The translations under genes were made by a program, and so were the position numbers. A stretch of DNA of 53,441 nucleotides, taken from the NCBI GenBank assembly GCA_035706765.1, contig DASSUS010000093.1:1-53441 (forward strand), read 5' to 3'. Position 1 is the first letter of the stretch, and each line of letters opens with the position of its first letter. Source of the stretch: Gemmatimonadales bacterium (lineage in GTDB: Bacteria > Gemmatimonadota > Gemmatimonadetes > Gemmatimonadales > GWC2-71-9). The notes below the pieces were generated by a model that was not told the origin of the DNA, did no database searches, and saw only the letters and a list, made by a program, of their open reading frames with translations. Of this stretch, positions 4,926 through 14,615 are shown piece after piece.

Positions 4926-7018
4926 TGCTCCTCGCGCTGCTGCTCCTCGCTCAAACTCCCGACACCGTCGTCCTGCAACCGATCACCGTCACCGCGACAC
5001 GACAATCCTCGAGCCTGTTTGCGGTCCCGCTCGCGGTCACGCAGGTGAAGAAACAGGATCTGTTCGGGGTCAAGGGTTCCGGGCTGGATGAGGCGCTCAC
5101 GCTCGTGCCGGGCGTCGTCGCTCAGTCGCGCTACGGCAACCAGGACGTGCGGATCGCCATTCGCGGCTACGGGGCGCGCGGCGCGGGCGATCGTTCCAAC
5201 GCTGGAACCACGCGCGGGATCCGGGTCCTGCTGGACGGCTTCCCCGAGACCGAGCCCGACGGCCGGACGTCGCTGGACGGCATCGATCTCGCCGCGGCGC
5301 ACGCGATCGAGATCGTGCGCTCGAATGCGTCCGCGGTCTGGGGAAATGCGGCCGGCGGGGTCGTGTCTGTGTCGACCCTGCCGTCGGTGAGCGACCCGCG
5401 GATCTCGCTCGAGCCGATGACGGGCGCGTTCGGACTGCGGCGCTATACGGCGGCGGGAAGCGCGCTCGTCGGGTCGGGGGTTCTGGGCGCGAGCTTCGTG
5501 CGCAGCGACGCCGACGGCTGGCGCGCGCATTCGGCGAGCAGCCGATCGCTGCTCAACATCTCGATGCGGGCGCCGGTCGGCGAGCAGACGCAGCTCGGCG
5601 TGTACGCGGTGGGCTCGCATACCGTCTTCAGAATCCCGGGGCCGCTGACGGCCGCGCAGGTCGCGGCCGATTCACGCCAGGCGAATGCCACGTATCAGGC
5701 GCGAGACGAACGGCGCGACAACAAGGTCGCGCGTCTCGGGCTCACGCTCGAGCACCAGGCGAGCGACGCCGTCGCCGTGACCGCGCTGCTGTACGCGAAT
5801 CCCAAGGCGCTGCAGCGCTCCGAGCGCGGCACGTTCCGTGATTTCACCCGCTATCATGTGGGCGGCAACGGGACGGTGCGCGTCAGGACGCCGTTGGGCC
5901 GCGGGGTGCGGGGCGCCTTGCTCGTCGGGGCCGACTACGCGCTGCAGGACGGCGCGATCCTGTTCTACAATCTCTCGCCGCAGCAGACACGCGGGGATAC
6001 GCTGCGCGACAACAAGGGGGAGGGCGCGCGCAATACCGGCCTGTTCGTGACCGAGGAGCTGTCATTCGGCGCGGCGGAGCGCTGGACGGTGTCCGCGGGC
6101 GCGCGCTACGACGACATCACCTACGACTATCGCAGCCACATCGATCCGTCGCTCGACGCGCGGCGCTCGTTTACCGGGCTGACGCCCAAGGTGGGCGTGT
6201 CGTACCGCCTGACGCCGTCACACAGTGTGTACGCATCGGTGGGCGGCGGCATCGAAGCGCCCGCCGGGAACGAAACCGATCCCGCCGGCACCTTCGGGCA
6301 GGACACCGTCACGGCGATCAATCCGCTGCTCGACCCGATTCGCTCCACCACGTACGAGGTGGGCACCAAACGCCAATGGACGCTCGACGCGGGGTCGTTC
6401 CTGCGCGAGCTCGGCTACGATGTCGCGTTTTACCAGACCGCGGTCCGGAATGAGATCGTCCCCTATCGCGGCGGCCGGTTCTACTTCACCGCCGGCCGGG
6501 TGCGCCGGCGAGGCGCGGAAATCGCTCTGCGCGCCGCGACGCGCGTGGGGGTCACCGTGCAGGCGGCCCTGACCTGGAACGCGCACCGCTATACCGAGTA
6601 CACCGTCGACTCGGTGCACTACGGCGTGCCCGGAGCGAGCGCCGATTACAGCGGGAATCGGGTGGTGGGCGTCCCCGCGTTCATCGGCGCGGTCGCGCTC
6701 GATGTCGTCCCCGCCGCGCTGCGGCCGCTCCATGCGCGACTCAGCGTCGAGAGCATGGGGTCCTTCTTTGCGGACGACGCGAATCGGGTGAAGGTGCCAT
6801 CCTACCGGATCGCGAACCTGTCACTCGGAACCGAATCGGCCCTGTCGTTGGGCGGCGGGCTCGGCGTGAACGCATTCGTGACGGTGAACAACCTCTTCGA
6901 TCGGCGCTACATCGCGTCGGCGTTCCTGAATCCCGACGTCGTCGGCGGCGAACCGGTGGCGTTCGAGCCGGGGTTTCCGCGACATGTGGTGGTGGGAGTG
7001 CAGCTCGTCGCGCACTAG
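4925..7018 (+). CDS. TonB-dependent receptor (697 aa)
   Basis: The ATG at 4925 shares its A with the permease stop (TGATG at 4923-4927). The ORF-track entry 4529..7018 is an upstream extension in the same frame. A signal (MLLALLLLAQ) is followed by the plug-type start DTVVLQPITVTATRQ...GLDEALTLVPGV...VRIAIRGYG, then a long beta-barrel-like region rich in alternating Y/R/G/D. Confidence 0.85.
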   Translation: MLLALLLLAQTPDTVVLQPITVTATRQSSSLFAVPLAVTQVKKQDLFGVKGSGLDEALTLVPGVVAQSRYGNQDVRIAIRGYGARGAGDRSNAGTTRGIRVLLDGFPETEPDGRTSLDGIDLAAAHAIEIVRSNASAVWGNAAGGVVSVSTLPSVSDPRISLEPMTGAFGLRRYTAAGSALVGSGVLGASFVRSDADGWRAHSASSRSLLNISMRAPVGEQTQLGVYAVGSHTVFRIPGPLTAAQVAADSRQANATYQARDERRDNKVARLGLTLEHQASDAVAVTALLYANPKALQRSERGTFRDFTRYHVGGNGTVRVRTPLGRGVRGALLVGADYALQDGAILFYNLSPQQTRGDTLRDNKGEGARNTGLFVTEELSFGAAERWTVSAGARYDDITYDYRSHIDPSLDARRSFTGLTPKVGVSYRLTPSHSVYASVGGGIEAPAGNETDPAGTFGQDTVTAINPLLDPIRSTTYEVGTKRQWTLDAGSFLRELGYDVAFYQTAVRNEIVPYRGGRFYFTAGRVRRRGAEIALRAATRVGVTVQAALTWNAHRYTEYTVDSVHYGVPGASADYSGNRVVGVPAFIGAVALDVVPAALRPLHARLSVESMGSFFADDANRVKVPSYRIANLSLGTESALSLGGGLGVNAFVTVNNLFDRRYIASAFLNPDVVGGEPVAFEPGFPRHVVVGVQLVAH

Positions 7019-8268
7019 CGCTTGACGCCGGCAGCCTCCGTAGCCTGGTCCAAAATCCGCCAGATCCGGTCCGTCCATTCGCGGTGCTCCGGCTTCATCA
7101 GGACCGAGCGCAGGCAGATGATGGTGTCGCGGTCGCGCTGCATCGGTCCAAGGTCGAGCAGGTGGAGCGGCAGCGACACGAGCGCGAGATGGAGCTGGCG
7201 GCTCGCCGCTTCGGCGAAGATCCGTTGCGACAGCGTCGAGGCCTCCGTCACGCTCGACGCGCGGGGCGCCCAGACAAGCATGTCGAGCTCGGGCGGACTT
7301 CCGGTACGGAATCGATCCTCCTGCCGGAGGCGCTGGTACAGATCGAGTGCGGCGGCGCGCCCGGACTCCAGCCCTTTGGCGAATGCGCCGCCCCGCACGA
7401 GCGGGAACAGGCGCTGCGTCGCCCACAGCGCGACGGCGGCGGCCCCCGGACGCGAGCACTCGAGCGCGATCTCACCGAGGTGCATGTCGGTCGAGGTGTA
7501 GTAGGTGTACGGGGAATCGTGGCGGTAGAGCCGGCCGACCGCGGGATCGCGGAACAGCACGCAACCGCATCCATACGGCTGCAAGCCGTGCTTGTGCGGA
7601 TCGATCACCACGGACGCCGTTTCGCGAACCGACTCGAGCGCCCGCTTCGTCTCGTCCTCGAGATTGTCCGCGAGGAGGAAATACCCGCCGTAGGCCGCGT
7701 CGGCGTGAATGCGAAAGTCGAACCGGCGCCGCAGCTCGACGATCGCGGCGAGTGGATCGACCGCCCCGGTCGCGGTCGTGCCCATCGTCGCGACGACCGT
7801 GCCGACGCCGCCCGCCGACAGCCGGCGTTCCAGGGCGGGGATGTCCATGCGGCCGCGCTTATCGCACGGGATCGACTCGAACGGAATGCGCAGCACGCCG
7901 GCGATCCGCTGGTGCGTGTAGTGCGCCTGCGACGAGGCGACGATCGTCTTGTCCGGATGGAGCTGGCTCGCGATCCACAACGCCTCGAGGTTCGCCATCG
8001 TGCCGCCGCCGCACAGATGGCCGAGGTGCGTATCCCACCCGATCATCTGCGCGAGCTCGGCGACCGCTTCCTTCTCCATGGCGGAGCTGGCGCGGCCGCC
8101 GTCGAGCGCGTGGTTATTGGGATTGATCCTGAGCGCCATCTCGTAGGCGCGCCGCGCGACGTCGTGCGGCGGCTTCAGCATCTGGCCGGCGTACAGCGGA
8201 TCGCCGTACGGATAATTGTCCTTGAGGCGCTCCGCGACTTCCTTCAGGACCGCGCTAAGACCCTTCAA
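7015..8268 (-). CDS. pyridoxal-phosphate-dependent decarboxylase (group II, MfnA/GAD-like)
   Basis: Contains GGTMANLEAL, HADAAYGG and DPHKHGLQPYGCG (PLP-lysine HK motif). It is the last gene of the minus-strand operon. Confidence 0.8.
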   Translation of the reverse strand: MKGLSAVLKEVAERLKDNYPYGDPLYAGQMLKPPHDVARRAYEMALRINPNNHALDGGRASSAMEKEAVAELAQMIGWDTHLGHLCGGGTMANLEALWIASQLHPDKTIVASSQAHYTHQRIAGVLRIPFESIPCDKRGRMDIPALERRLSAGGVGTVVATMGTTATGAVDPLAAIVELRRRFDFRIHADAAYGGYFLLADNLEDETKRALESVRETASVVIDPHKHGLQPYGCGCVLFRDPAVGRLYRHDSPYTYYTSTDMHLGEIALECSRPGAAAVALWATQRLFPLVRGGAFAKGLESGRAAALDLYQRLRQEDRFRTGSPPELDMLVWAPRASSVTEASTLSQRIFAEAASRQLHLALVSLPLHLLDLGPMQRDRDTIICLRSVLMKPEHREWTDRIWRILDQATEAAGVKR

Positions 8269-9370
8269 ATGCCCTCAGGTAGGTGCGATCCCAGGCGGCG
8301 GGAATACTCTCGCGCGGCGAGTAGGGGCCGGGCGCGTACACGCGCGAGCCGACGCCGAGCTGGCTCTGCTCGCAGATGTGCCAGTCCTGCCGGTTGGTCC
8401 GGTCCCAGAATTCTTCCGCATCCTCGATGTTGTAGCCGGCGGCGCGCGGCGCGTCGGGGTGCACCATCCATTCGCAGATCACGCGCGAGTGCGCGGGGCC
8501 GAGCGGCCAGACCGTGTAGAACACCGCGTAGTCGGGATGCAGGCTCAGCATCATCGACGGGAACAGCGCGTAGTAGAACGCGCGACGCCGATCGTCGGCC
8601 GAGAACTCCCCGAGCGGCAGCGCGCAGGCGCGGCCCGTCATCGTCGCGCTTTCGTTCGGCGCCTTGATTTCCATGTAACCGCCGAGGAACGGCCCCTCGA
8701 TCAGATCGTTGGCGCCGCTCGTGTACGGCAGCTTGGTCGAGAGCTCGGGGTGAATCGTGGGGCAGTGCAGGCATTCGTTGTAATTCTGGAGAATCAGCTT
8801 CCAGTTGGCCTTCACGTCGTACTCGATGTGCCGCACCGCCCGCAGCTTCGGCAGATTGTAGCGCGCGAACCGGCCTTCGAGCGGCGCGAACCACTCTGCC
8901 GCATTGGCCTCTGCCCCGAGATTCACGAACAGGAATCCCTCCCACTCGGCGAGCGCCACCCGATGCAGCGGGTATTGCTTCTTGTCGAACCCCTCTACCT
9001 CGTTCATGTGGGGCGCGCCGATCAAGCGACCATCGAGCGCGTACGTCCATGCGTGATAGGGGCACTGAAGCGTTTCGGAGAGCTTGCCGCTCGCCGCTTC
9101 GCACAGCCGCGTGCCGCGGTGGCGGCACACGTTGTAATAGGCGCGCCGTGTGCCTGACTGATCGCGCAGCACGATGACCGACTCGCCCGCGAACTCGACC
9201 ACGAAGTAATCGCCCGGCGCGGCAAGAGAGGCGTCGCGTCCCACGCAGATCCAGTGGCGCGCGAAGATCCGCTCCTGCTCCTCGACGAACACGTCGGGGC
9301 TCGTGTAGTAGCGGCCCGGCAGCGTCCGCGCACCCTGGCGATAGCTCTCGATGGTTTTGACGAAGGTCAT
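8255..9370 (-). CDS. Rieske [2Fe-2S] non-haem-iron oxygenase alpha subunit (GbcA/choline-monooxygenase-like subgroup)
   Basis: Rieske motif CRHRG-x17-CPYHAW. Iron-site region NYNECLHCPTIHP. I chose the start at MTFVKT (ATG 9370) because it overlaps the upstream stop by 4 nt (ATGA). The ORF track extends to 9481. Confidence 0.85.
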   Translation of the reverse strand: MTFVKTIESYRQGARTLPGRYYTSPDVFVEEQERIFARHWICVGRDASLAAPGDYFVVEFAGESVIVLRDQSGTRRAYYNVCRHRGTRLCEAASGKLSETLQCPYHAWTYALDGRLIGAPHMNEVEGFDKKQYPLHRVALAEWEGFLFVNLGAEANAAEWFAPLEGRFARYNLPKLRAVRHIEYDVKANWKLILQNYNECLHCPTIHPELSTKLPYTSGANDLIEGPFLGGYMEIKAPNESATMTGRACALPLGEFSADDRRRAFYYALFPSMMLSLHPDYAVFYTVWPLGPAHSRVICEWMVHPDAPRAAGYNIEDAEEFWDRTNRQDWHICEQSQLGVGSRVYAPGPYSPRESIPAAWDRTYLRAFEGS

Positions 9371-10713
9371 ACGATCTCCCGCGCCGCGTTGCGCCCCGCC
9401 GCTCCCGGGATCCCGCCTCCAGGATGCGTGCCCGAGCCGCACAAATACAAGCCCTCGATCGGGGTCCGGTAGCGACTCCACCCCGGCACCGGCCGCATGA
9501 ACAAAATCTGGTCGAGGGTCAGCTCGCCGTGGTAGAGGCTCTCGTCGGCGGGCTGGAGCGTGATCTGGTCCGGCCGGGCGTTCAGCACGCGAGCGACCGC
9601 CTCCGTGAGCCCCTGATGCGCGCCCGGAGCGACGTATTGCACATGCAGCTCGACGCGCCCATTGGTGCGCTGCACCTCGACATATGGCGCGCCGGAGTCG
9701 CGCCCGTACTTCACCGCGTCGTAGGCGCGCTCGAGATAATCGAGCGAGGGCGCAAAGCAGAGGTTCCAGAAGTCCGGTGGCGTCCCGATAGCGTACGTGC
9801 CGCGCGCCACGACGCCGCGCGCCTTGATGTTGCGCACCGCCCAGGCGAACTCGGGATCGAGCTCCATCGCGATCGGCTCCAGTGTCGAGCGGGGCGGAGC
9901 GCTCGACACCACCAGCGGGGCGAGCACGGCGTCACCGCTCCCGTCCAGGACGACGCCCGTCGCGCGTCCGTTCCTGGCGAGCACGGTGGCACGTTGACCG
10001 CGGCGCAGCTCGACGCCGTTCAGCTCGGACAGCGCCTGAGTCGAGTTCGAGCGCGGAGGGCGGAAGACCCCTGCGGGACTGCCGACGTGGTGATGCAGGA
10101 AGTTGAATGCCGTGCCGCCCGAGCGCGGCCCCTGCTTGAGATGCCAGATGCCGAGCGCGCCGAGCGCGCCCTTCAACGCGTCGCTCTCGAACCAGTCGTC
10201 CAGCAGCTCCGCGATCGACATCGGGAGCACGCGCGCGAGGTCGATGACCGCCTGTTTGCCGAGCCGGCGCACGTACAGGCCCAGGCCGCCGATGCGCGCC
10301 AGCTCACGCGGGTCGCGCGTTTCGATGTCGGGCGGCGGCGCGAGATACAGTCGCTCCAGCACGCTCGCGAGCGTGTGCATCCGCGCGCTGAACTCCGCCC
10401 ACTTGCCCGCGTCCGCGGGACTGACGCGCCGAATCGCCTCGACCGATTTCCCCATGTCGCGCGAGAGCTCGAGGGTGCCGCCCGCCGGGAGCGGCACGGT
10501 CAGCCAGGGATCGGGCTCTTCGATGCGCAGACCCGGTACGCGCAGGTCTTTCAACACCTGCGGCGGGATCCATCCCATATCGGCAGCGGGATCGGGGACC
10601 TCACGCTGTTCTACGACCAGCACGCGCTTGCCCGCGCGCGCCAGATAGTGCGCCGCGACGAGACCGTTGGTGCCCGCGCCGATCACGATCGCGTCGTACC
10701 GAGCGTCGCTCAC
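9367..10713 (-). CDS. NAD(P)/FAD-dependent oxidoreductase, phytoene-desaturase (CrtI)/amine-oxidase superfamily
   Basis: The N-terminal dinucleotide fold is YDAIVIGAGTNGLVAAHYLARAGKRVLVVEQ. The C-terminal part has GLYLCGSGTHPGGGIPG. Confidence 0.8.
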   Translation of the reverse strand: MSDARYDAIVIGAGTNGLVAAHYLARAGKRVLVVEQREVPDPAADMGWIPPQVLKDLRVPGLRIEEPDPWLTVPLPAGGTLELSRDMGKSVEAIRRVSPADAGKWAEFSARMHTLASVLERLYLAPPPDIETRDPRELARIGGLGLYVRRLGKQAVIDLARVLPMSIAELLDDWFESDALKGALGALGIWHLKQGPRSGGTAFNFLHHHVGSPAGVFRPPRSNSTQALSELNGVELRRGQRATVLARNGRATGVVLDGSGDAVLAPLVVSSAPPRSTLEPIAMELDPEFAWAVRNIKARGVVARGTYAIGTPPDFWNLCFAPSLDYLERAYDAVKYGRDSGAPYVEVQRTNGRVELHVQYVAPGAHQGLTEAVARVLNARPDQITLQPADESLYHGELTLDQILFMRPVPGWSRYRTPIEGLYLCGSGTHPGGGIPGAAGRNAAREIV

Positions 10714-12299
10714 GTGCCGTCCTTCAGGATGCGCAGCGCGGCGAGTCGTCCCGATGCGCCCATGATCCCGCCGCCCGGGTGCGTCCCCGAGCCGGCCTGG
10801 TAATAGCCGCGCACCGGCGTCGTGAACTTCGCCCAGCCCGGCGCTGGACGGAGGAAAAACAGCTGGTGCAGCGCCAGCTCGCCGGCGAAGATGTTGCCCT
10901 CGGACAAGCCCGTGATGCGCTCGATGTCGAGCGGCGTGATCACCTGCCGGTGCAGGATCTTCGATTTGAACCCGGGCGCGAAGCCTTCGAGCGTGTTCAC
11001 GACGGCGTCGCCGAACGCCTCGCGCTTCGCGTCGGTCCAGCCGCCGTTCAGGTTGTACGGCGCGTACTGCACGAAGATCGACATCACGTGCTTGCCGGGC
11101 GGCGCCATCCCGGGATCGATCATCGACGGGAACACGATGTCCATGTAGGGCCGGCGCGAGAACTCGCCGTACTTCGCGTCGTCGTAGGCGCGCTCGACGT
11201 AGTCGAGGCTCGGACTGATCGACACCGCGCCGCGATGCAAGCGTCCGCCGGGACCGCCGTCCGGCATGCAGGTGAACGTCGGCAACGAGTCGAGCGCGAT
11301 GTTCACCTTGCCCGACGAGCCGCGGAACTTGAAGCGCTTGATGTCGGAGACGAACTCGTCCGGGAGCTGGCTCGGCTCGAGCAGCTGGAGGAACGTCCGG
11401 CGCGGATCGAGACTCGACACCACCGTCCCGGCCAAGAGCTCATCGCCGTTCTCGAGCACGACGCCGGTCGCTTTGCCGCCCTTCACCAGCACCTTCGACA
11501 CACCGGCGTCACACCGGATCTCAGCACCGAAAGAGCGCGCGGCCGACGCAATCGCTTCGCTGACCGCCCCGGTGCCGCCCTTGGCGAAGCCCCAGGCCCT
11601 GAACACGCCGTCCAGCTCACCCATGTAATGATGAAGGAGGACGTACGCCGTTCCGGGTGAGCGGGGACCGAGAAACGTGCCGATGATCCCGCTGGCCGAC
11701 TTCGTTGCCTTGAGCACGTCGGTCTCGAACCACTCATCGAGAAAGTCGGCCGAGCTCATCGTCATCAGCTTCACGAGCGCGTGCAGCCGCTCGGCGCCCA
11801 GGCCGCGGAAATGCTTGCCGAGCTTGAGCAGGGCGGCGAGGTCGCCCGGGGCGAACGACGTCGGATCGGGCGGCACCATGCTGAGGATCGGCTTCACAGC
11901 CTGGGCCATGAAGTGCATCAGGCGGCCGTATTCGTCATACGCCTCGGCGTCGCGCGGCGAATGCCGGTAGAGCTCGCGACGAGTCTCGTCGTGATCGGCC
12001 CAGGCGGCGAGATAGTCGCCGTTCTCCATCGGCGTCACCGTGCTCTCGAGCGGCAGGATGTGCAGCCCGTGCCCGGGGAGATCGAGATCGCGAATGATCT
12101 CGGGCCGCAGCAGACTCACCACGTAGGAGAACATCGAGAACTTGAAGCCCGGGAAAATTTCTTCCGTCACGGCCGCTCCACCGACGCGCGGCCGCTTCTC
12201 GAGCACGAGCACGCGTTTCTCGGCGCGCGCGAGATAGGCGGCCGTGACGAGCCCGTTGTGCCCGCCGCCGATGACGATGACGTCGTAGCGCTTGGCCAT
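10710..12299 (-). CDS. NAD(P)/FAD-dependent oxidoreductase, CrtI/RetSat-like (second paralogue)
   Basis: I chose the start at MAKRYDVIVIGGGHNGLVTAAYLARAEKRVLVLEKR (ATG 12299), which abuts the upstream stop at 12299-12301. The 720-aa ORF-track version is an Arg/Pro-rich upstream extension. The C-terminal part has GYYQAGSGTHPGGGIMG. Confidence 0.8.
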   Translation of the reverse strand: MAKRYDVIVIGGGHNGLVTAAYLARAEKRVLVLEKRPRVGGAAVTEEIFPGFKFSMFSYVVSLLRPEIIRDLDLPGHGLHILPLESTVTPMENGDYLAAWADHDETRRELYRHSPRDAEAYDEYGRLMHFMAQAVKPILSMVPPDPTSFAPGDLAALLKLGKHFRGLGAERLHALVKLMTMSSADFLDEWFETDVLKATKSASGIIGTFLGPRSPGTAYVLLHHYMGELDGVFRAWGFAKGGTGAVSEAIASAARSFGAEIRCDAGVSKVLVKGGKATGVVLENGDELLAGTVVSSLDPRRTFLQLLEPSQLPDEFVSDIKRFKFRGSSGKVNIALDSLPTFTCMPDGGPGGRLHRGAVSISPSLDYVERAYDDAKYGEFSRRPYMDIVFPSMIDPGMAPPGKHVMSIFVQYAPYNLNGGWTDAKREAFGDAVVNTLEGFAPGFKSKILHRQVITPLDIERITGLSEGNIFAGELALHQLFFLRPAPGWAKFTTPVRGYYQAGSGTHPGGGIMGASGRLAALRILKDGT

Positions 12300-13492
12300 C
12301 AGGCGCGCTTCCGTTCGGGATTGAAGAAGGGCAGGGGCGTCACCCGGGCACGCGCCGCTTTGCGGCGATGCTCGACGGTGATCTCCATGAACAATTCGGT
12401 TCCGGGCCGGGCGAACTGCGACTCGAGGTGGACGAGCGCCATGTACTGCTTGAGCAGCGGCGACCAGCCGCCGCTCGTCGCGTAGCCCACCTGTCGGCCG
12501 CCGCCGTCGTAGACGGGGACGCTCGTGCGCCATGCCTGGGACGGCAGTCGCGGTGGCAGGCCGACAGCCGCATACAGACTCTCCAGCGAATCCCAATCGA
12601 CGGTCAAACCGGTGAACTGCCAGCTGGACCCTTGCTTCTTCTCGCGCAGCAGTGCGTCCTTGCCGTTGAACTGTTCCTTGTCGGTCGCCACGGTCCAGCC
12701 AAGGCCCAGCTCGTACGGGGACGACTTCTGTGATTCGATCAGCGCGTGCCGGGAGGAGAAGTAATCGACTTCGATGAGCAGCAGTCCCGCTTCGATGCGG
12801 GCGACGTCGAGCGCCAACATGCCGGCGGGCGTGATGCCGTAGGGCGTGCCGGTTTCGACGATCGCATCCCATAGCGGGACGGCCTGCGCCGCGTCGACCC
12901 AGACCTCGAAGCCGAGGTCCCCGGTGTAGCCGGTACGCGAAATCGTTACTGGAATGCCGCGGATCCTTGCCGGGGTGAGCCGGAAGTACTTGAGGGACGT
13001 CAGGTCTTGCTGTGCCGCGAGCTGGAGGATCTCACGCGAGCGAGGACCCTGCAACGACACCGCGGCCGTCTTTTCCGAGACGTCCTCGATTTTCACGTCG
13101 AGCCCGGAAGCGTTGAGGTGCAGCCAGCGCAGCGTGGGATCGGCCGACGTCATCCGATACGTCTGCTCGTTCAGGACGGAGATTGTGCCGTCGTCGATCT
13201 GCTTGCCGGCATTGTCGCACCAGGGCGTGTACAGCACCTGGCCGACCTTGGCCTTCGCGACGTGGCGCGTGACGACCTTGTCGAGCAGCTGCGCCGCGTC
13301 TCTACCGGTGATCAAGTACTTATATAGAGGAGAGACGTCGAACAACGCGGCCGAATTGCGAATCGCGTGGTACTCGCGATCGTGCGACAGCTCGTACGAG
13401 CTGGCGACCACATATCCCGCCCAGCGGCGCCAGGCTTGTCCCTCGGACAGCGGGGCGGTCCGGGGATGAAACGGCGTGGTGCGCAGGCTCAC
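12299..13492 (-). CDS. aminomethyltransferase (GcvT) family protein, folate-dependent demethylase-like
   Basis: Contains AIRNSAALFDVSPLYKYLITGRDAAQLLDKVVT (GcvT-type N-terminal motif). The length and C-terminal barrel region are typical of the family. Confidence 0.8.
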   Translation of the reverse strand: MSLRTTPFHPRTAPLSEGQAWRRWAGYVVASSYELSHDREYHAIRNSAALFDVSPLYKYLITGRDAAQLLDKVVTRHVAKAKVGQVLYTPWCDNAGKQIDDGTISVLNEQTYRMTSADPTLRWLHLNASGLDVKIEDVSEKTAAVSLQGPRSREILQLAAQQDLTSLKYFRLTPARIRGIPVTISRTGYTGDLGFEVWVDAAQAVPLWDAIVETGTPYGITPAGMLALDVARIEAGLLLIEVDYFSSRHALIESQKSSPYELGLGWTVATDKEQFNGKDALLREKKQGSSWQFTGLTVDWDSLESLYAAVGLPPRLPSQAWRTSVPVYDGGGRQVGYATSGGWSPLLKQYMALVHLESQFARPGTELFMEITVEHRRKAARARVTPLPFFNPERKRA

Positions 13493-13860
13493 GACGGAAC
13501 CGTCGTGGCTGTTTCGGCCGGCGCGAAGACGACCAGGACCTGGAGCTCTGCCTGGATCGAGTGGAAATGATGCTCGACGCCGGCGGGAACGAAGATCGCG
13601 GTACCCGGGACCGCGGGGCGGTCTTCGCTGCCCACGCGAATCGTCGCCCGCCCGCCGACGACGTAGTACAGCTCATCTTCGCGGTGCGGGGCCTGCCGGT
13701 CCGGCTCGCCGGGCTGGAGCACGTACAGGCCCGCCGACATGGCGGGCACGCGGATCAGCTCGAAGTAGTTGTGGCCGGCCGGGCGATCGGCGAACAGGCG
13801 TGGCAGCTCGAAATTCTCCATGCGGGCGCGAAATCTCACTTGGCCGGGCCGTTCGTGCAA
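13489..13860 (-). CDS. cupin domain protein
   Basis: Contains PHREDELYYVVGGRATI...GTAIFVPAGVEHHF (cupin motifs 1 and 2). An alternative start at MENFEL (13821) is possible. It is the first gene of the operon and overlaps the next gene by 4 nt. Confidence 0.75.
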   Translation of the reverse strand: MHERPGQVRFRARMENFELPRLFADRPAGHNYFELIRVPAMSAGLYVLQPGEPDRQAPHREDELYYVVGGRATIRVGSEDRPAVPGTAIFVPAGVEHHFHSIQAELQVLVVFAPAETATTVPS

Positions 13861-13868
13861 ATTTCGGC

Positions 13869-14615
13869 GTGCGCCTGCACCTCGTGGAGATTCATGACTT
13901 GCCGTGGTGTCCGCCCTCGCTGCGCGACGGGCTGACCGATTTTCTCGCCTTTTCGCTCAATCTCGCCCGGGCTTATGAGCCCGCCGGTCCGCTGCTGCGC
14001 CGCGCCGTCGCCCGAACCGGGGCGCGCCGCATCGTCGATCTGTGTGCGGGGGCGGGTGGGCCATGGTCGTGGTTGGGGAGCGAAGTCGGCGTCCCAGTGA
14101 TCCTCACCGACCTTTATCCTCATGCCGGGGCGGTCCATCCCGGGCCGGTGGACGCTCGCTCGGTGCCCGAAAGTCTCGACGGATTTCGGACCGTCTTTAC
14201 CGCCTTCCATCATTTCCGGCCCGCGGAGGCCCGCGCGATCCTGGCGGACGCGGTCCAGAAGGGCCAGGGCATCGCCGTGTTCGAGGCCGCGCGCCGCGCC
14301 CCCTGGGAGATTCTGGTCGTCGCGCTGACCTGGTTGGGGGTGCTGCTCGCTGCGCCATTCATCAAGCCATGGCGCTGGTCCCGCCTGTTCTGGACCTACC
14401 TGCCGCCGCTGCTGCCGCTCGTCGGCACATTCGACGGCATCGTGTCGTGCCTTCGCGCCTATTCGTCCGCCGAGCTCGAAACCCTGGTCTCCGGACTCGA
14501 CAGCTACGACTGGGAGATCGGCGACCTGCGTGGCGGGTGGTCGCCGTTGCGGGGGACTTACATGATCGGGATCCCGAAGGTCTCTTTGAGGGACGCTGCG
14601 TCGTCACCCCGCTAG
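13869..14615 (+). CDS. class I SAM-dependent methyltransferase-like protein with a hydrophobic C-terminal segment
   Basis: The frame of ORF 13476..14615 was trimmed to the GTG at 13869 (VRLHLVEIHDLPWCP...). RRIVDLCAGAGGPW resembles SAM motif I. WEILVVALTWLGVLLAAPF is hydrophobic. The start is uncertain. Confidence 0.5.
   Translation: MRLHLVEIHDLPWCPPSLRDGLTDFLAFSLNLARAYEPAGPLLRRAVARTGARRIVDLCAGAGGPWSWLGSEVGVPVILTDLYPHAGAVHPGPVDARSVPESLDGFRTVFTAFHHFRPAEARAILADAVQKGQGIAVFEAARRAPWEILVVALTWLGVLLAAPFIKPWRWSRLFWTYLPPLLPLVGTFDGIVSCLRAYSSAELETLVSGLDSYDWEIGDLRGGWSPLRGTYMIGIPKVSLRDAASSPR

Follow-up and report, generated by a model that had tools for sequence, protein, structure and literature searches.

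Introduction

In several described enzymes the oxidation of an amine by a flavoprotein is paired with a folate-binding module of GcvT type that takes the one-carbon unit, as in dimethylglycine oxidase (DMGO; 1pj5), DMGDH (5l46) and the heterotetrameric sarcosine oxidase (SoxA; 1vrq/2gag). The flavoprotein of these enzymes belongs to the DAO family and is either fused to the folate domain or tightly built around it. A separate GcvT-domain protein, DmmD, is encoded beside the demethylating oxygenase of the DmmDABC system and is thought to conjugate formaldehyde to tetrahydrofolate (PMC5520151). Here we describe a six-gene operon that brings together a GcvT-like protein, two flavoproteins and a Rieske oxygenase in a stretch of 53,441 nucleotides of a Gemmatimonadales bacterium (contig DASSUS010000093.1; hereafter the window, meaning this whole stretch). 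Six co-directional open reading frames on the minus strand (13860-7015) encode a small cupin, the GcvT-like protein, the flavoproteins FAD1 and FAD2, the Rieske protein and a pyridoxal phosphate (PLP)-dependent decarboxylase. The operon probably serves a catabolic route in which N-methyl groups are removed oxidatively from a methylated amine or amino acid and the one-carbon units are captured by tetrahydrofolate.

The flavoproteins of the operon lead to PYROXD2, an orphan flavoprotein of vertebrate mitochondria that has been linked to a metabolic disorder of infancy (PMC8777681). In humans the PYROXD2 locus shows association with levels of methylated amines in blood and urine: with trimethylamine and dimethylamine, urinary trimethylamine dropping as PYROXD2 expression rises (PMC3169529), and with N-methylpipecolate and N2-acetyl-N6,N6-dimethyllysine (PMC13352909). 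These associations fit a substrate class of N-methyl amines. Unlike bacterial FAD1, vertebrate PYROXD2 has no known gene context with GcvT or Rieske partners.

The window has a high GC content (about 67%) and comes from the metagenome-assembled genome of a soil bacterium; this assembly comprises 2.17 Mb in 173 contigs and is 93% complete. A preliminary description, made from the sequence of the window, had identified the operon and proposed the catabolism or tailoring of an N-methylated amine or amino acid. It had not recognised the combination of genes as a described pathway, and our literature searches likewise found no described pathway with this combination.

The GcvT-like protein

The GcvT-like protein carries both Pfam domains of its family (GCV_T, 213 bits; GCV_T_C, 44 bits) and stays under the cut-offs for true T-proteins (TIGR00528, 158.7 against 235.85 bits; PRK00389, 228.4 against 300 bits). 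Its best solved relative is the folate-binding C-terminal half of the trimethylamine N-oxide demethylase Tdm (residues 409-784, E 4e-53), followed by T-proteins, DMGO, SoxA and DMGDH; the folate domains of the last three are matched at E 1e-22 to 5e-31. This order of relatives bears out the earlier suggestion that a GcvT-family protein points to tetrahydrofolate-linked one-carbon removal, and we propose that the protein captures the one-carbon unit as 5,10-methylenetetrahydrofolate.

The arrangement of the genes differs from that of DMGO, DMGDH and SoxA. The GcvT-like protein stands alone, with no DAO-family flavin domain joined to it; its neighbours belong to the Amino_oxidase/CrtI family, and a pair of CrtI/PYROXD2-family paralogues takes the place of the DAO-family flavoprotein beside a separate folate polypeptide. 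In encoding the GcvT-like protein separately the operon resembles DmmDABC, and in having a folate half as closest solved relative it resembles Tdm, but the catalytic subunits of those systems—DmmABC or the N-terminal half of Tdm—are not flavoproteins of the PYROXD2 type.

The flavoproteins FAD1 and FAD2

FAD1 matches the Pfam family Amino_oxidase with 67 bits, and its full-length alignment to the PYROXD2 gene model of a bird shows 37% identity (E 9e-118). Oomycete and Perkinsus entries named PYROXD2 align at 37-41% identity over 99-100% of the query, and the nearest clusters in the protein Atlas bear the same name. The motifs GHNGL, PGFKFS, YVLLHH.MGE and GSG.HPG are common to FAD1 and the bird protein. 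We take PYROXD2 to have a CrtI-like fold, and tested the link directly by these alignments, which support the placement of FAD1 in the PYROXD2 family rather than generically in the CrtI family. The designation of both flavoenzymes as CrtI-like holds for the CrtI/amine-oxidase fold and is refined to the PYROXD2 family by the full-length identity. FAD1 is strongly conserved, with 62-93% identity across phyla and a mean column identity of 71%. Its structural model (pLDDT 84.7) has as nearest folds the carotenoid desaturases 4rep and 4dgk, then the nicotine oxidoreductase NicA2, putrescine oxidase and monoamine oxidase, all at 19% identity or less; no close solved structure was found.

FAD2 aligns with PYROXD2 at 26% identity (E 6e-32), and its family has a mean column identity of 46%. 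Here and in some metagenome-assembled genomes of Burkholderiales it occurs in a short form of about 448 residues, against about 515-520 residues (some 75 more) in other lineages. The proteins of this genus keep the GxGxxG motif as GAGTNG together with the glutamate of strand beta2, and have EQREVPDPAAD where relatives have the GG segment that follows this glutamate. The shortened form and the missing GG segment suggest that FAD2 may be a non-catalytic partner.

A model of the FAD1-FAD2 complex reaches an ipSAE of 0.91, against 0.28 for the best of three controls, with at least 95% contact agreement between runs and a partner pLDDT of at least 90. Of 80 solved complexes 58 reached that mark, as did 2 of 110 mismatched pairs; these counts are rough because the alignments were our own. 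The model supports a heterodimer, although it does not show binding.

The search for longer relatives listed 24 long proteins, two of which were inspected as candidate fusions. In P0130, a database "fusion" of GcvT and FAD1, the alignment covers GcvT residues 5-290 and is followed by an Arg/Pro-rich out-of-frame stretch before FAD1; in P0123, a "fusion" of FAD1 and FAD2, the first module is cut short at its end and the second is missing the GxGxxG with which it should start. Both were rejected: they appear to result from frameshifts, or from small deletions between neighbouring genes that overlap, and evidence from domain fusions in this family needs checking case by case.

An alternative raised in the preliminary description was that the flavoproteins act on a carotenoid or isoprenoid; they would then be desaturases or ketolases of CrtI/CrtO type in an operon that tailors a lipid. 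The best NCBIfam match of FAD1 is indeed the CrtO model, and carotenoid desaturases head the list of fold matches. The CrtO score (NF045689) amounts to 294.9 bits (135.5 for FAD2) against a cut-off of 1000, however, and the score for crtI_fam (TIGR02734) to 110.1 bits (47.1 for FAD2) against 238.1; CrtI, CrtO and CrtD share the overall fold of FAD1 (4rep, TM 0.77-0.82; 4dgk) but only 17-19% identity. Neither a phytoene or squalene synthase (PF00494) nor a CrtI above cut-off was found in the present genome or in its congeners G046 (100% complete) and G004 (99%). The constant partners of the flavoproteins are the folate protein, amine-type Rieske oxygenases and amino-acid or polyamine transporters, with no carotenoid gene in the contexts examined. 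With scores this far below cut-off and no synthase found in these three genomes of the genus, we take a carotenoid pathway to be absent and reject the carotenoid alternative as extremely improbable.

The same three genomes yielded no protein of the SQS_PSY family as a whole, which covers phytoene, squalene and hydroxysqualene synthases; this would mean that C40 carotenoids and squalene-derived lipids are not made.

The Rieske oxygenase

The Rieske protein matches two Pfam families, Rieske with 71 bits and Ring_hydroxyl_A with 157 bits. Among its solved relatives Stc2 (3vca/4qup; E 6e-53) ranks first, followed by 3n0q and CntA (E 2e-44), while the best match to an aromatic ring dioxygenase reaches 1e-29. 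It scores 239.8 bits against the GbcA model (NF058607), under the equivalog cut-off of 670 bits, and 90 bits against the HcaE model. The Rieske cluster ligands lie in CRHRG-x16-CPYHAW (C82-x-H84-x18-C103-x2-H106), a motif that had been reported correctly except for its spacing, given as x17. The iron-site segment NYNECLHCPTIHP occupies residues 196-208; the protein has the motif N-Y-N-E-C-L-H-C-P-T-I-H, and E200, H202 and H207 of the segment align with the bridging glutamate and the two iron-binding histidines of CntA and Stc2. The protein has the CxH...CxxH ligands, the two-histidine iron site and the bridging carboxylate of the GbcA/CntA type.

In these ligands, and in an iron-site region of the form N-x-x-E-C-x-H-C-x-x-x-H, the protein resembles GbcA/BmoA (glycine betaine), Stc2 (stachydrine; 3vca) and CntA (carnitine; 6y8j). 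Identities counted from the alignments over the N-terminal approximately 200 residues are about 48% to CntA and about 36% to Stc2. The ranking of relatives supports the placement of the protein in the GbcA/Stc2/CntA group of quaternary-amine oxygenases rather than among ring dioxygenases, as was first supposed.

Conservation of the gene neighbourhood

We compared 80 FAD1 loci from Gemmatimonadota, Acidobacteriota, Chloroflexota, Beta- and Gammaproteobacteria, Acidimicrobiia and others. A GcvT gene accompanies FAD1 in 72 of them, in 62 as its direct neighbour, and a further FAD gene does so in 74, whereas a Rieske gene of the quaternary-amine type occurs in 30, a cupin gene in 7 and the decarboxylase gene in 3, all of this genus; all of these are lower bounds, because several loci end at contig ends. 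By these counts the operon is larger than the conserved unit, the trio of GcvT-like protein, FAD1 and FAD2, whose linkage across phyla is established, with the Rieske oxygenase as a frequent partner. Conservation of the neighbourhood accordingly holds for the trio, not for the cupin and the decarboxylase, which are lineage-specific. Within the genus the entire operon is kept, with the cupin variable, and the decarboxylase is tied to it at further loci of the same genus besides the 3 in the sample.

The next commonest neighbour of the trio is an amino-acid permease of the APC family. On alphaproteobacterial plasmids of cultured strains the trio is accompanied by a TetR regulator, a class III aminotransferase, one or two Rieske genes and ATP-binding cassette (ABC) transporters of polyamine or amino-acid type; the annotations of these genes are all generic. 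Cultured carriers of the trio include Rhizobium sp. SL42 (NZ_CP063398), Fuscovulum ytuae (NZ_CP124537) and Parasedimentitalea marina (NZ_CP033222).

Such surroundings bear on a further reading, in which amine oxidation by the trio involves no loss of an N-methyl group. A polyamine or an aminomethyl compound, for example, would be cleaved, with the GcvT-like protein taking the aminomethyl or methylene unit as in glycine cleavage and the Rieske protein cleaving a C-N bond as CntA does. The polyamine-type transporters and class III aminotransferases of the alphaproteobacterial clusters would suit it, as would the polyamine and putrescine oxidases of the Amino_oxidase family, seen among the fold matches of FAD1, and the fact that CntA, to which the Rieske protein is closely related, releases trimethylamine rather than demethylating. 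On the other side, the nearest characterised relatives of the GcvT-like protein all serve N-demethylation, the T-protein excepted, and the metabolites associated with PYROXD2 are methylated amines. We consider this reading fairly unlikely, although the data do not separate it sharply from N-demethylation.

The operon might also be biosynthetic, with the decarboxylase supplying an amine for hydroxylation and oxidation to a specialised metabolite or a compatible solute. Group II decarboxylases often open biosynthetic routes—DesA and DABA decarboxylase are among the relatives of this one—and the operon contains neither a transporter nor a regulator gene. The restriction of the decarboxylase to one genus speaks against this, and elsewhere the trio lies among uptake systems, TetR and LysR regulators, aminotransferases, DAO-family oxidases and arginase-family and M20 enzymes, which is a catabolic setting. 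A biosynthetic role is in our estimation highly improbable.

Other Gemmatimonadota genera (loci L026-L033 and L040) carry a second module composed of a TonB-dependent receptor, an FAD1-like protein (48% identity), a Rieske paralogue and, between the genes of these last two, a cupin of the same family. The cupin of this module has a DMSP_lyase-type Pfam match just over the cut-off; after the module come genes for a DAO-family oxidase, an APC permease and enzymes of the M20 or arginase family, and the Rieske orthologue lies 4-8 kb away on the opposite strand. The cupin travels with the Rieske/FAD1-like pair. At one locus of the present genus (L021; G046:C2:812000-831999, in an 8-contig genome) FAD1 aligns in two pieces and FAD2 in three, and an internal TGA is reported; these breaks could be long-read indel errors or gene decay.

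Electron supply to the Rieske oxygenase

The absence of a reductase or ferredoxin gene from the operon, remarked on in the preliminary description, is confirmed, and the search of the genome revealed no reductase of a canonical type. NAD_binding_1 (PF00175), the FNR-type domain of GbcB and CntB, has no match in the present genome or in any of eight congeners, unlike in the GbcA and CntA systems, where such a partner is present. Reductase_C (PF14759), typical of ferredoxin reductases of the BphA4 type, was found in none of the five genomes tested. Plant-type 2Fe-2S (Fer2) matches in the present genome correspond to a small subunit of the xanthine-dehydrogenase type and to NuoG. Among 59 Gemmatimonadota genomes that carry an orthologue of the Rieske protein (E <= 1e-100), two of them unpublished (G057 and G182), just 13 have any NAD_binding_1 match, whereas all 59 have a gene of the FAD1 family, against 41 of 142 other genomes.

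These observations raise the question of how a Rieske oxygenase is reduced in organisms where the usual reductases were not found. One answer would be that the FAD1/FAD2 pair is its physiological electron donor: the two electrons from the oxidation of a partly demethylated amine by FAD1/FAD2 would drive the Rieske demethylation of the next quaternary substrate, and a dedicated reductase and NAD(P)H would be unnecessary. Such a donor would explain why no canonical reductase was found, why the Rieske orthologue always occurs with a gene of the FAD1 family in the sample, and why the module of FAD1-like protein, cupin and Rieske paralogue recurs. NicA2, one of the fold relatives of FAD1, is an amine-oxidase-fold enzyme that hands electrons to a protein acceptor, which makes the idea chemically reasonable. 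We nevertheless regard a donor role of the flavoproteins as distinctly unlikely, and generic electron donors of other kinds may serve the oxygenase.

Operon structure, expression and accessory genes

The features of the locus are listed in Table 1. All five junctions between the six genes overlap, with the lengths first reported: in gene order, the shared sequences are GTGA (4 nt), TGATG (1 nt), GTGA (4 nt) and ATGA (4 nt), followed by an overlap of 14 nt, and the overlapping arrangement is also kept in congeners. GC content at third codon positions is 0.84-0.89 in all six genes, and all six family assignments are backed by Pfam. A consensus scan revealed no internal promoter-like sites, and the four terminator-like sites in the operon are not above chance (2.8 +/- 1.6 expected from shuffled sequences). 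The intergenic region upstream of the cupin gene contains no sigma-70 consensus by the same kind of scan. The six-gene operon is real, and its gene structure and the family placement of its products are established as initially described.

Table 1. Coordinates of the six operon genes and of the upstream intergenic region in the window
Feature	Coordinates	Strand	Remarks
Small cupin (Cupin_2)	13489..13860	-	123 aa from TTG 13860; ~110 aa from ATG 13821
GcvT-like protein	12299..13492	-	GTG start, 397 aa
FAD1, PYROXD2-type flavoprotein, CrtI/amine-oxidase fold	10710..12299	-	ATG start, 529 aa
FAD2, diverged shortened FAD1 paralogue	9367..10713	-	GTG start, 448 aa
Rieske non-haem-iron oxygenase alpha subunit	8255..9370	-	ATG start, 371 aa
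Group II PLP-dependent amino-acid decarboxylase	7015..8268	-	TTG start, 417 aa
Divergent intergenic region, cupin gene / S9 peptidase gene	13861..14041	.	presumed operon promoter region

Near-identical DNA is present in soil and root metagenomes of twelve studies. Short contigs of a soil metatranscriptome (run X14) that differ from the window by 0-2 letters map to the Rieske, FAD2, FAD1, GcvT and cupin genes, and one of them crosses the FAD2/Rieske junction (9179-9420). Their cover is patchy within the operon and absent from the flanks 6500-7021 and 13808-14300. Contigs from an RNA library cannot show expression level, strand or transcript ends, and the library may contain DNA; they are a weak hint that the operon is expressed.

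The decarboxylase matches Pyridoxal_deC (PF00282) with 88.2 bits against a cut-off of 27, and its DPHK motif at residues 223-226 places the PLP lysine at residue 226. Its score is under every equivalog cut-off, with MfnA (127 bits) and enterococcal tyrosine decarboxylase (110 bits) as best matches, and its solved relatives, which include the two decarboxylases named above, reach E 1e-28 at best. The TTG is the first start codon available in frame, with GAGGG 3 nt upstream, and the residues that follow it are conserved in orthologues. The cupin (Cupin_2, 46 bits) has TTHA0104, itself of unknown function, as best solved relative; the ATG is a more likely start than the TTG (Table 1), because orthologues align only from residue 11-17.

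In a genus designated g6, a decarboxylase orthologue (65% identity; locus L037, G045:C1:1700000-1719999) adjoins a glycerophosphodiester phosphodiesterase (GDPD) gene and Opp-type permease genes. It lies 3.4 kb from the Rieske orthologue, with RidA and GH38 genes between them and the trio not nearby. A link to glycerophosphodiesters or choline, drawn from this gene order (GDPD, decarboxylase, RidA, GH38, Rieske), proved too loose and was not used.

The six genes might be mere neighbours with no common pathway, the Rieske and decarboxylase genes being independent of the trio. The Rieske gene is found at just 30 of the trio loci, and in g6 the Rieske orthologue and the decarboxylase share a neighbourhood with the GDPD, RidA and GH38 genes but not with the trio. 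Set against this are the stop/start overlaps at all five junctions and their retention in congeners, the FAD1-family gene in every one of the genomes with a Rieske orthologue, and the recurrence of the module of FAD1-like protein, cupin and Rieske paralogue in other genera. A chance neighbourhood appears very unlikely.

A convergent gene for a TonB-dependent receptor on the plus strand ends at 7018, and the decarboxylase gene ends at 7015; the stop codons of both lie in the palindrome CTAG (7015-7018). The two genes therefore overlap by 4 nt at their 3' ends, which leaves no space for a terminator between them.

Discussion

The operon is a variation on the theme of folate-coupled N-demethylases, built on an uncharacterised flavoprotein family. 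Oxidative N-demethylation probably best describes its function; the grouping of the Rieske protein and the relatives of the GcvT-like protein support the degradation or tailoring of an N-methylated amine or amino acid that had been proposed at the outset, and the catabolic variant is favoured. From the family placements and the gene context we infer the chemistry, the order of steps, the complex and the substrate as follows. Like GbcA, Stc2 and CntA, the Rieske oxygenase would hydroxylate a carbon bound to a quaternary or tertiary nitrogen, to yield a less methylated amine and formaldehyde. The FAD1-FAD2 heterodimer, with FAD1 as the catalytic subunit (an amine dehydrogenase or oxidase), would then oxidise the C-N bond of a remaining N-methyl group to an iminium. 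The GcvT-like protein would move the one-carbon unit to tetrahydrofolate, giving the 5,10-methylene form, in the manner of the folate domains of DMGO, SoxA and Tdm and of DmmD. In this genus, the PLP decarboxylase and the cupin might process the carbon skeleton before or after demethylation. Methylated lysines and betaines of omega-amino acids are reasonable first candidates for the substrate, and no more than that.

Several points weigh against this interpretation. None of the six proteins meets any curated equivalog cut-off of NCBIfam, and the flavoproteins belong to a family with no member of demonstrated activity. The connection of PYROXD2 with methylamines is one of genetic association, not biochemistry. 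Paralogues may tend to come out as dimers in modelling, and the score of the heterodimer could reflect this. The genomes searched revealed no electron donor for the Rieske oxygenase, and the counts of co-occurrence of Rieske and FAD1 genes overstate the support they give, because related genomes do not count as independent cases. Both the decarboxylase and the cupin are lineage-specific additions outside the conserved unit, and the interpretation does not explain their roles. The contigs of the RNA library may stem from contaminating DNA, and their placement had no silent stretch as control.

If oxidative N-demethylation is the function, the operon points to a third architecture for the folate-linked form of this chemistry, in which a heterodimer of the CrtI/PYROXD2 family acts together with a GcvT-like protein that is a polypeptide of its own. 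The module occurs widely among soil and marine bacteria, for which methylated amines are major sources of nitrogen and one-carbon units. Its bacterial gene context suggests a testable function for PYROXD2, an orphan protein of human mitochondria.

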